From: a virus
Lineage: Duplodnaviria > Heunggongvirae > Uroviricota > Caudoviricetes
Length of the DNA stretch: 9,894 bases
IMG/VR virus record: IMGVR_UViG_2534681831_000019
Direction: 5' to 3' (one strand)
In this document: piece by piece, positions 1 to 3,000 of the stretch
Layout: the number at the start of each line of letters is the position of its first letter
Position numbering within the stretch: position 1 is the first letter of the stretch
Program-made: the position numbers

Positions 1-3000
1 CATTCGGGGTGATGAAAGCGGAGTAAAATGGATTCAATGTGGTAATATCTTTGTCTCCCTATTTCATAAGGTTCAAGATGATCATGAAAACGATGGAGAT
101 AGGATTTGGCAAACTCTCAATGATTCTCTCATTGAATGGAAACCAATCTTATTATCAGTTAATAAAATCTGAAATTCAGAATGCAATCGAAGCTGAGGCT
201 TTATCTTTTGTAAATCATTTGGCTAACGATCATTACGGTCAAGCTGCGTGGTTAAATGAGATATTAAAATCAGACTCGCCTGATATTAGATGTAGAAATA
301 TTGACTTTGTATTTGGTAATTTATCAGAAGAGCTTTATCAAAGACTTAAAAATAATAATACGCTGGATGAATTTATCAAAAGTGTTTTTGATAGCTATTC
401 AAATGAATACGCTAACAGCGGAGTTGCTGCATTGCTCCAATATTGCTCTTCAAAAATGGATCTGCCATCAAATAATGATACTTATCACGAAATGTATCAT
501 GCTTTAAATATGAATTTGTCTTCAAAGAATTTTGAAGATGGTCATATTTCTACTGGCACTATTTTCTTTGATACAGAGTCGAACAAATGGTATTTATGTG
601 TATCTGCGGCATGTGATTTGGTTCCTACTCAGGGTAACGACCCTCACCATGTAAGATTAAGTCCGCACAGGCTCATTAAAGTTCTGGAGCTTTTTAACGC
701 CAGTCAGAGTAAAGCATTGCCATTTGCTGAACATTCGAAATATATATATGTAATGCATAAAAATCAAAGAAAATATCTCTCTATTTTCGAAGGGGATAAA
801 ACGCTTCCTGTTGTTGATTATATGGTGGTGTTGAATCATGGAACAACAGTTGATGGCGAAGAAAAAATATTATTTCTGCCGTGTTTTTAAGTAATATGGA
901 TGGCAACGTGCAAAATGTTCCTGTCCGACTCAAACTTAAATCTCAACTGAGAACTGGTTATGCAGAAAGATATCAGGCTATAGCGTCTCAGTATAGCTCA
1001 AGGATTGGTGTGGATTATGTATCAATGATGCTACCATAATTATTATATTTTAGGCGTGGTGATTTTTTTTCGCCATGCCTATTTTATATTTATCATCACA
1101 ATGATGTTGTTTATTTTTGTTTAAGTCTTCTAAGCTTCATGCATTCTAATGAGAATAATAATAGAGTTGTGCTGTATATAAAGCCAGAGTTAGTTAATAA
1201 CTTTAAATTTAATGCTTCAGGATTTTCACTGAGAAAGTGAAAGGCATAAACTAAGTATACAGCTAAAGTAGCCGTTCCAATTGTTGGTCCAATATCGCCT
1301 TGATCATGAGGTTCAAGGTTTACATTGAACTTGAAGATTAGCCATTCAAATCCCCAAGTAAAAAAACAACTAATATCATGGCTGCGAATAATTTCGCGAT
1401 GTTATCTGCTGATGGATTCATCAGAACAGATTGTTTCTGAAAAAATTCACAAAGTGAGAGTCCGAAAAAAATAAAAAAAGTGGTCTGGAACTAAATTTTT
1501 CAAAAACTTTGAATAGGGTTTCCATTTTCTTTACCTTCAGGATTATATTAGCTATTCTGATACTTAGGCTACCAGAGCATTTGATCTTTGAGCTTGAACG
1601 TAATCACTCCACCATTGCATCAAACTCTGTCGCTCTATCAGATATTCTGCACGATTGTATGCTGCGATAATTTCATCTTTTTTCGAGTGGGCAAGCGCTG
1701 CCTCAAGAACTTCAGCTCTGAATTTACCAGACTCCTCTGCCGCTGTTCGTGCAATAGAACGCATACCGTGAGCTACAAGCTCGCCTCCGAACCCCATTCG
1801 GATGATAGCTGCGTTGGCTGTTTGTTCATGCATATGATTAAGAGGCGCTTTTATGCTGGGGAAAACCCATTCTCTATGCCCACTTATTGATTTCATTAAT
1901 TCAAGGATGCGCAAAGCTTCTTTACTCAAAGGAACTTTGTGAAGCTTTTTCATTTTCATGAAATCAGCAGGAATGTTCCAAATGCTGTTGGTTGTATCAA
2001 TATCAGACCACCTTGCGCGAACGGCTTCACCCGGACGAACCCATGTCAACAATTGCCATTCAATTAGCATACGTGTTTCCAACCGGATTGACGCATTCGT
2101 CAAAGATTCCATAAACCTTGGCAATTCGCTTGGGGGAAGGGCAGGCATATTTTGCTTTTTTGGTTTACTGAATCTTTGACCAAGGTTGTCAGCCGGGTTG
2201 AACTCAATAAGTCTAATCCACTCCGCGCCGCCATGATTGTCTTTCTCATGATGCAGGACGCCAATAATGCTTAGCCCATCCCAATCCCTTCAATACCAGA
2301 AAGAAAGCGTCGAGCGGGCTTTAACGTGCGCTAACTGCGGTCAGAAGCTGCATGTGCTGGAAGTTCACGTGTGTGAGCACTGCTGCGCAGAACTGATGAG
2401 CGATTCGAATAGCTCGATGCACGAGGAAGAAGATGATGGCTAAACCAGCGCGAAGACGATGTAAAAACGATGAATGTCGGGAATGGTTTCACCCTGCATT
2501 CGCTAATCAGTGGTGGTGCTCTCCAGAGTGTGGAACCAAGATAGCACTCGAACGACGAAGTAAAGAACGCGAAAAAGCGGAAAAAGCAGCAGAGAAGAAA
2601 CGACGACGAGAGGAGCAGAAACAGAAAGATAAACTGAAGATTCGAAAACTCGCCTTAAAGCCCCGCAGTTACTGGATTAAACAAGCCCAACAAGCCGTAA
2701 ACGCCTTCATCAGAGAAAGAGACCGCGACTTACCATGTATCTCGTGCGGAACGCTCACGTCTGCTCAGTGGGATGCCGGACATTACCGGACAACTGCTGC
2801 GGCACCTCAACTCCGATTTGATGAACGCAATATTCACAAGCAATGCGTGGTGTGCAACCAGCACAAAAGCGGAAATCTCGTTCCGTATCGCGTCGAACTG
2901 ATTAATCGCATCGGGCAGGAAGCAGTAGACGAAATCGAATCAAACCATAACCGCCATCGCTGGACTGTCGAAGAGTGCAGGGCCATCAAGGCGAAGTATC

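Follow-up and report, generated by a model that had tools for sequence, protein, structure and literature searches.

What is to be made of a small gene that seems to have decayed beside an integrase remnant in viral DNA? The question is raised by the minus strand of a stretch of 9,894 nucleotides (nt) from a virus of the Caudoviricetes (IMG/VR record IMGVR_UViG_2534681831_000019), the whole of which is here called the window. An original prediction, made from the sequence alone, saw at 1111-1421 a decayed gene for a small membrane protein, split at a run of seven adenines. As judged by comparison with its homologs, the region 1111-1525 is an interrupted copy of a conserved gene for a small four-helix membrane protein. 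This protein of 138 amino acids (aa), from the family of WP_000448925.1 and CAC83129.1, is called p138 here. Taken as a whole, the explanation that the locus holds a p138 copy, in its place in an island, with frameshifts that are likely artefacts, appears very probable.

The p138 gene and its family

All three minus-strand frames were read over 1040-1580. The features that this reading and the alignments deliver are as follows.

1111-1525, minus strand: whole p138 gene, 138 codons, from ATG (1525-1523) to TAA (1113-1111), by alignment to intact alleles
1421-1525, minus strand: piece 1, a 34-aa open reading frame (ORF), in the true frame only in its first ~17 codons (METLFKVFEKFSSRPLF)
1338-1421, minus strand: piece 2, a 27-aa ORF with an ATG (MNPSADNIAKLFAAMILVVFLLGDLNG), this ATG being the internal Met36 of p138
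1111-1401, minus strand: piece 3, a 96-codon stop-free frame, in the true frame from 1359 to the stop (residues ~56-138)
1473-1479: A7 run (T7 in the coding sense) at the Phe-rich codons 16-19, A8 in intact alleles; first frameshift in gene order
1360-1366: A7 run (T7 in the coding sense) at codons 54-57, A8 in intact alleles; second frameshift in gene order
1534-1538, minus strand: GAAGG, a putative Shine-Dalgarno-like motif read from the sequence, 8 nt 5' of the ATG at 1525

Two -1 frameshifts thus split the p138 frame of the window into three pieces, leaving no uninterrupted frame of 138 codons; between the two A-runs (1472-1367), the true frame is that of piece 2. Frame reading confirms that a 27-codon frame starting with ATG overlaps a 96-codon stop-free frame, as originally described. 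The A7 run at 1360-1366 lies within this overlap and is indeed one of the breaks, since adding one A (to give A8) joins both frames. The further proposal, that one base change would yield a protein of ~103 aa, holds in so far as the frames are joined. However, the product is then residues 36-138 of 138, and recovery of the whole gene needs two changes. The extent proposed for the gene, 1111-1421, was too short; it missed the other frameshift (1473-1479) and the ATG at 1525.

Might these frames simply be chance openings in AT-rich DNA, with no gene behind them? It had been argued that so long a stop-free run is unlikely to be chance. Alone, that argument is weak, as 3.8% of Markov shuffles of the block 1041-1563 (523 nt) reach runs of 96 codons, and so do 20% of those of the 1.56-kb block 1-1563. 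Because a stop-free length of this kind is only mildly unusual in shuffles, length alone shows no gene, and it is homology that makes the case. Full-length conservation across genera with a ratio of nonsynonymous to synonymous divergence (omega) of ~0.1 or less, a confident structure model driven by co-evolution, and a consistent place after an integrase all stand against chance, whose probability is close to nil.

The homology is extensive. A 601-nt query (1000-1600) finds matches in 585 of 5,426 complete Escherichia coli genomes, almost always with at least 99% identity, and most of these matches are two bases longer than the window. The matched genomes carry an annotated coding sequence of 417 nt for a “hypothetical protein” (WP_000448925.1, 138 aa). 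Over 561 nt, the window is identical to the common intact allele save for two 1-nt gaps, both in A8 tracts, without a single substitution; with both A's restored, the p138 of the window is exactly WP_000448925.1. By full-length similarity, therefore, the three pieces together belong to the p138 family, being identical to an intact allele bar these two gaps. Intact alleles translate to a conserved protein, which excludes one of the outcomes by which the prediction had offered to be judged, that neither frame has homologs. The gene has a GC content of 32%, and in 1040-1600 there is neither an Rfam match nor a meaningful repeat.

Beyond E. coli, a search of 5.8 billion proteins gives 52 clusters of p138 proteins, most of them aligned over the full 138 aa and some of them shorter partial calls, with full-length members 59-99% identical to the query. 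The named source organisms of these clusters are all Enterobacterales (Escherichia, Salmonella, Klebsiella, Citrobacter, Enterobacter, Serratia, Pectobacterium, Yersinia, Hafnia, Phytobacter, Pantoea, and Photorhabdus). A scan of species-representative genomes, 13 of which carry p138, added Raoultella, Kluyvera, Lonsdalea, and Erwinia. A profile search of 1.84 billion representatives brought in some 20 distant relatives of 132-148 aa, with 20-34% identity, among them members from Cupriavidus taiwanensis and from metagenomes, and a search with the narrower family alignment returned one metagenome locus. The 90%-identity cluster of protein P0001 also lists two “tyrosine recombinase” proteins of 424 aa (P0094 and P0096). 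These join an integrase C-terminus to an unrelated N-terminus, contain no p138 sequence, and are a clustering artefact.

Substitution patterns in this family are those expected of a functioning protein. Nonsynonymous divergence (dN) is ~0.13 with synonymous divergence (dS) saturated, and whole-gene omega is 0.08-0.10 where dS is unsaturated. The first 35 codons, which the original prediction did not include, are conserved across genera: most comparisons, dS being saturated, give a dN of 0.09-0.19 (0.31 against Photorhabdus cinerea), and the comparison with Kluyvera gives an omega of 0.067. No ribosome-binding motif was seen before the ATG of Met36 on reading the sequence. The conservation of codons 1-35 under purifying selection, together with the missing motif at Met36, implies that the N-terminal 35 codons belong to the gene. 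The phage protein family PHROG 6556 (no annotated function) matches p138 at E=1e-70, covering only residues 36-138, so a shorter gene model starting at Met36 exists in some phage annotations. On the strength of these comparisons, p138 is to be regarded as a genuine gene under purifying selection.

As for the product, the prediction had spoken of several hydrophobic segments, and hydropathy gives four (~15-30, 42-66, 79-100, and 110-130). An AlphaFold2 model built from 43 sequences is all-helical, with helices at 14-29, 40-69, 79-101, and 114-130 (pLDDT, the predicted local distance difference test, 88.4; pTM, the predicted template modelling score, 0.81). Hydropathy peaks and model alike thus give the p138 family four hydrophobic helices. 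Near-invariant positions are P38, L71, D75, G80, G84, L88, L111, F116, and L124; helix 3 opens with a conserved D-x(4)-G-P-x-I-G motif, and Glu128, close to the C-terminus, is mostly conserved. Across the wider family, no polar residue is invariant, and p138 does not have the look of an enzyme. The protein would insert in the inner membrane, where the positive-inside rule would place its basic C-terminal tail, KLRRLKQK, on the cytoplasmic side.

Searches of the family databases give the protein no better name. Intact p138 matches no family in Pfam or NCBIfam, and Pfam searches with 22 members of the family show no recurring one. Na_H_Exchanger appears among the Pfam results below threshold (13.7 bits, with a cut-off of 26.2) and was judged compositional. 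UniRef calls one homolog (P0022) a CPBP intramembrane protease, a name that appears unfounded, since neither p138 nor the 22 members has an Rce1/CPBP match in Pfam. Among the PADLOC defence models, 0 families match p138 at E<=1, and it is not classed as a defence protein. PDB sequences, searched with a profile, yielded 0 matches at E<=10, and sequence and fold searches produced no match in PDB or BFVD. Literature searches for the p138 accession numbers found nothing. Gene, product, and locus are, of course, already catalogued under the name of a hypothetical protein; the only new angle is that of an uncharacterised family.

Frameshifts: error or decay

If the gene is real, is its interruption real as well? 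Only three complete genomes match the window from end to end, those of E. coli O111:H8 strains 8B, 95NR1, and 95JB1, at 99.8%. Two of these nearest relatives, 8B and 95NR1, have A8 at both p138 tracts, and are identical to each other over the region save for a 5-nt indel at the junction between integrase and prophage. In complete E. coli genomes generally, the tract at 1360-1366 is A8 in 566 of 573 and A7 in the other 7; that at 1473-1479 is A8 in 583 of 585 and A7 in 2.

The p138 gene is not alone in being broken. Over 9.9 kb, the window differs from 8B and 95NR1 by nine single-base indels and five substitutions, a count that omits the last 17 bases, which diverge. These indels break the convergent Response_reg_2 gene (at 145 and 861), p138 twice, stxB1, and the genes for DUF6645 (6341), DUF1378 (8104), and DUF826 (8233). 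Of the seven A-runs of at least 7 nt in the window, four are one base short, and several of the substitutions abut homopolymers. Bacterial mutation spectra do not give a ratio of indels to substitutions near 2:1 at 99.8% identity by natural divergence; such a ratio is typical of homopolymer miscalls. The excess of indels throughout the window, together with the lack of any substitution around p138, makes error likelier than decay. Thus, the two bases missing from p138 are probably errors of sequencing or assembly in homopolymers. What the original prediction called a decayed gene for a small membrane protein is, then, an interrupted copy of a real gene, as claimed; its decay is doubtful, and error fits better.

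Decay does, of course, have evidence in its favor. Here, p138 would be a genuine pseudogene, both of its A8 tracts having lost a base by replication slippage while the gene and its neighbors decay as parts of a cryptic island and prophage. The sequence does carry disabling frameshifts, and the island is already a remnant, its integrase being truncated. Further points tell against error as the source of the frameshifts. Some long homopolymers in the window (T8 at 1063-1070 and A8 at 7857-7864) are not shortened, and T-runs are untouched, which means that any error process was not uniform. Several unrelated genomes also have A7 alleles (the 7 and the 2 noted above), something that real slippage would give as well. 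An insertion sequence, IS2, truncates p138 in E. coli strain XSLGL-2, a real inactivation; at this locus (L038, 3759-5000) IS2 lies at the 3' end of the gene, and homology starts at window position 1144. The gene is therefore demonstrably dispensable.

Against decay, however, stand the 561 nt around p138, which show none of the substitutions that might accompany it. Nine indels to five substitutions is too biased a set of changes for natural divergence, several of the substitutions abut homopolymers, and the indels are spread over at least six genes, one of them stxB1, which is hit in its signal peptide. A pseudogene is accordingly an unlikely reading of the window.

Only one complete genome, that of OkiPb01717 (L002), has both A8-to-A7 deletions. 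At ~770 in that locus, CCAGG has become CTAGG at a Dcm motif, making an “internal stop” in the GHKL ATP-binding gene. A change from CCAGG to CTAGG at a Dcm motif is a typical long-read miscall, and the one in OkiPb01717 looks like such a methylation-related miscall.

A third account of the A-runs would make them useful rather than accidental. In a phase-variable (contingency) gene, the A8/T8 tracts would be selected slippage switches for p138. Two homopolymers of 8 nt do lie inside a gene of 417 nt, and a minority of genomes have a -1 allele at one or the other. However, the tracts are confined to the allele group of E. coli and Kluyvera (Kluyvera with one T8 and one T7), and nine more distant alleles, from six other genera, have runs of 6 or fewer at both sites, so that the tracts are not conserved. 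In Serratia, Salmonella, Citrobacter, Erwinia, Lonsdalea, and Photorhabdus, the Phe-rich peptides are the same but the runs that encode them are broken up; the long tracts of the E. coli gene follow simply from Phe codons at 32% GC. OFF alleles are rare (1.2% and 0.3%; A7 in 7 of 573 and 2 of 585 genomes, a variation that looks no different from assembly error), and no +1 alleles were noticed among the matches listed. Selection for slippage is thus very improbable.

Error as the preferred source of the missing bases has practical consequences. The apparent decay of p138, Response_reg_2, and stxB1 in the window probably reflects one-base homopolymer errors and serves as a quality flag. Pseudogene calls made from the window, including that of a seemingly defective Shiga-toxin B subunit, are not to be trusted without the reads.

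The other changes may be set down individually. At the start of stxB1 (5129-5137, plus strand), the window reads ATGAAAAAAC, with A6 where related Stx1a prophages have A7, and its stxB1 frame stops after five codons (MKKHY*). This shortening is probably a homopolymer error of the same class, and the lost base matters if toxin status is inferred from the window. At 6341, an added T splits the DUF6645 gene into ORFs of 149 aa and 524 aa. Relative to the nearest genomes, the DUF1378 gene has gained an A at 8104, and the DUF826 gene has lost a G at 8233. The last 17 bases of the window (9878-9894) diverge from all three nearest genomes, and may represent different downstream sequence or an effect of the sequence end.

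The island and its interchangeable cargo

Where does p138 normally reside? Its surroundings in the window include three further features.

1564-2213, minus strand: 3' remnant of a P4-type tyrosine integrase, residues ~195-409 of a 409-aa protein
1-1039, plus strand: 3' half of a 582-aa Response_reg_2 (PF19192) gene, convergent with p138 and broken in the window
1051-1081, plus strand: GC-rich hairpin and T-tract between the convergent genes, scoring as an intrinsic terminator for the Response_reg_2 gene

As originally described, p138 is co-oriented with the integrase remnant, directly downstream of it, and convergent with a plus-strand gene. A gap of 38 nt separates the integrase stop from the start of p138 on the same strand, and position and orientation assign p138 to the integrase end of the element. 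No terminator-like site was found between the two. Read on the minus strand, the stem of the hairpin at 1051-1081 has two mismatches.

In the window, two mobile elements of an O111:H8-type E. coli meet. In 8B and 95NR1, the genes run from a GHKL “ATP-binding protein” through the 582-aa Response_reg_2 protein and intact p138 to the 3' 215 codons of the integrase. The 5' part of the integrase has been replaced by DNA of an Stx1a prophage, from NinF onwards: NinF, NinG, NinH, Q, stxA1/stxB1, DUF6645, holin, and lysozyme. In the window, the junction of truncated integrase and NinF occupies 2209-2270; at 2209, strain 95NR1 has five extra bases (AGTTC) relative to both the window and 8B. Prophage CP-1639 (AJ304858), deposited in 2005, shows this arrangement too, under the label “remnant integrative element”; p138 is there EC_CP1639_07 (CAC83129.1). 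A 2026 preprint that cites the CP-1639 paper puts this cryptic Stx1a prophage at ssrA. Within the prophage part of the window, a full-length Rfam match (176.7 bits) places the small RNA STnc100 (RF02076) at 5476-5685 on the plus strand, downstream of stxB1.

In its whole form, the island has the order ssrA, integrase (409 aa), a spacer of ~40 nt, p138, and convergent cargo. It is an AT-rich integrative island, normally found at the transfer-messenger RNA gene ssrA, and p138 is at its integrase-proximal end. All 30 E. coli genomes sampled have the integrase next to p138, as do loci of Serratia, Klebsiella, Raoultella, Kluyvera, and Photorhabdus. A 5.6-kb contig from a metagenome-assembled genome labelled “Bacteroidales bacterium” (L023, DAIPZW010000118.1) holds the E. 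coli integrase, p138, and Response_reg_2 at 99-100% identity, its p138 copy being frameshifted at the second A-run; this is almost certainly a misbinned E. coli contig.

Some observations, however, do not sit easily with this picture of a gene bound to one place. In a few loci, the P4-type integrase is missing, its place upstream of p138 being taken by a different recombinase, by an HNH gene, or by an unknown gene. Around the distant relatives are found PFIN, a PAAR protein, a Tn7-like TniQ, HigBA-like genes, and an OmpA-like gene; these contexts are heterogeneous, and no consistent partner gene appears near those relatives.

What travels opposite p138 varies. Three types of cargo are found: Response_reg_2 with GHKL/HEF_HK and a Dcm-type methylase; DUF6119 with HxsABC; and an N6/N4 methylase module. 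When the Response_reg_2 and DUF6119 islands of E. coli are compared, nucleotide homology takes in the last ~105 nt of the cargo gene and all of p138, and continues into the integrase. Because this block reaches from p138 into the integrase, it is the integrase end of the island, and not one cargo system, with which p138 moves. The edge of the conserved module of integrase and p138 falls at ~935-1039 in the window, at 3936-4040 in L001, and at 3932-4033 in L003. The Response_reg_2 and DUF6119 proteins of different islands have a similar C-terminal tail of ~34-44 aa, and such a common tail suggests that cargo is exchanged by recombination, with the breakpoint inside the end of the cargo gene.

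This bears on the suggestion, made in the original prediction, that p138 is the partner of a convergent ORF of 283 aa. That ORF (39-890) is a fragment of Response_reg_2, namely the stretch between two shifts: one base gained at 145 (+1) and one lost (-1) from an A7 run at 862-867 (the indel counted above at 861). The last piece of the gene is an ORF at 881-1039. The hypothesis then becomes one in which p138 is a membrane partner or effector of the Response_reg_2/HEF_HK (paraMORC-like) system, a restriction-modification-associated system resembling two-component systems (Bellieny-Rabelo et al., 2021; PMC8011034). Proximity speaks for it: in the window and most E. coli copies, p138 has this system as its immediate convergent neighbor, and it lies tail-to-tail with Response_reg_2 in most loci of E. 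coli, Serratia, Salmonella, Citrobacter, and Erwinia. Loci L011, L018, and L022 even keep p138 and Response_reg_2/GHKL without a P4-type integrase.

Convergent orientation means, however, that the genes do not form one operon, and p138, on the other strand, contains neither of the defining domains (PF19192 and PF19191). The co-occurrence of p138 with Response_reg_2, which the prediction had asked to be examined, is not consistent. Together with the integrase, p138 is found beside DUF6119/Hxs (L003, L012-L014), beside the N6/N4 methylase (L019-L021), and with neither (L010, L015). A survey of 644 Response_reg_2 regions in 628 strains (PMC8011034) reports linkage to a GHKL ATPase and a methylase, and neither its genomic-context section nor a search of the paper for terms yields a conserved small membrane protein. 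The count of only 13 species-representative genomes with p138 points the same way. A partnership is thus improbable and the proposal not supported; p138 is probably not a subunit of the Response_reg_2/GHKL system.

Possible function and likenesses

What, then, might p138 do? In the mechanism proposed here, p138 would be co-transcribed with the integrase and would act alone in the inner membrane, independent of the cargo systems, as an accessory factor carried by the island. Genes in such positions in prophages and islands make a role of the exclusion or immunity type the most plausible guess. By that analogy, p138 may be an accessory membrane factor of this type, an assignment that is tentative and on balance doubtful. 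Weighing against it, the family, defence-model, and fold searches gave no match that speaks for any function.

The idea may also be put for the family as a whole. Its members, of about 135-140 aa, could be stand-alone membrane factors of mobile elements, fixed in Enterobacterales as the neighbor of the integrase in ssrA islands whose defence-type cargo is swapped, with an exclusion, immunity, or island-maintenance phenotype; in this general form the idea is speculative and rather unlikely. If it is true, the phenotype of p138 could be of a kind not yet described. A place conserved after a P4-type integrase while defence-like cargo swaps makes p138 a reasonable, if low-priority, candidate for functional study.

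Three comparisons give such guesses their content. The superinfection-exclusion proteins SieB (of lambda and P22) and Imm (of T4) stand for the integrase-proximal, “moron”-type accessory membrane proteins of prophages and islands. Like these, p138 is a small multi-helix inner-membrane protein without enzyme-like conserved residues, from an AT-rich gene beside the integrase of a mobile element. No sequence or fold similarity to them was detected, however, and the resemblance is one of kind and not of membership.

The immunity proteins of pore-forming colicins are a second comparison, having three to four transmembrane helices in ~110-180 aa. Here, p138 differs in having no Pfam match to their families, and so is not counted among them. 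In the Enterobacterales islands, moreover, no toxin gene is adjacent, and the neighbors of the distant relatives are inconsistent. Yet p138 is similar to these proteins in size, in helix count, and in its basic, presumably cytoplasmic tail, and some of its distant relatives do lie in toxin-rich surroundings (PAAR in L025, and a cluster of RTX, type I secretion, and HlyC genes in Cupriavidus).

The third and closest comparison is, of course, with the catalogued protein itself, WP_000448925.1 or CAC83129.1. From this, the copy in the window differs by its two -1 frameshifts, while its place is the same as in CP-1639 and the O111:H8 genomes, between a truncated intA and Response_reg_2.

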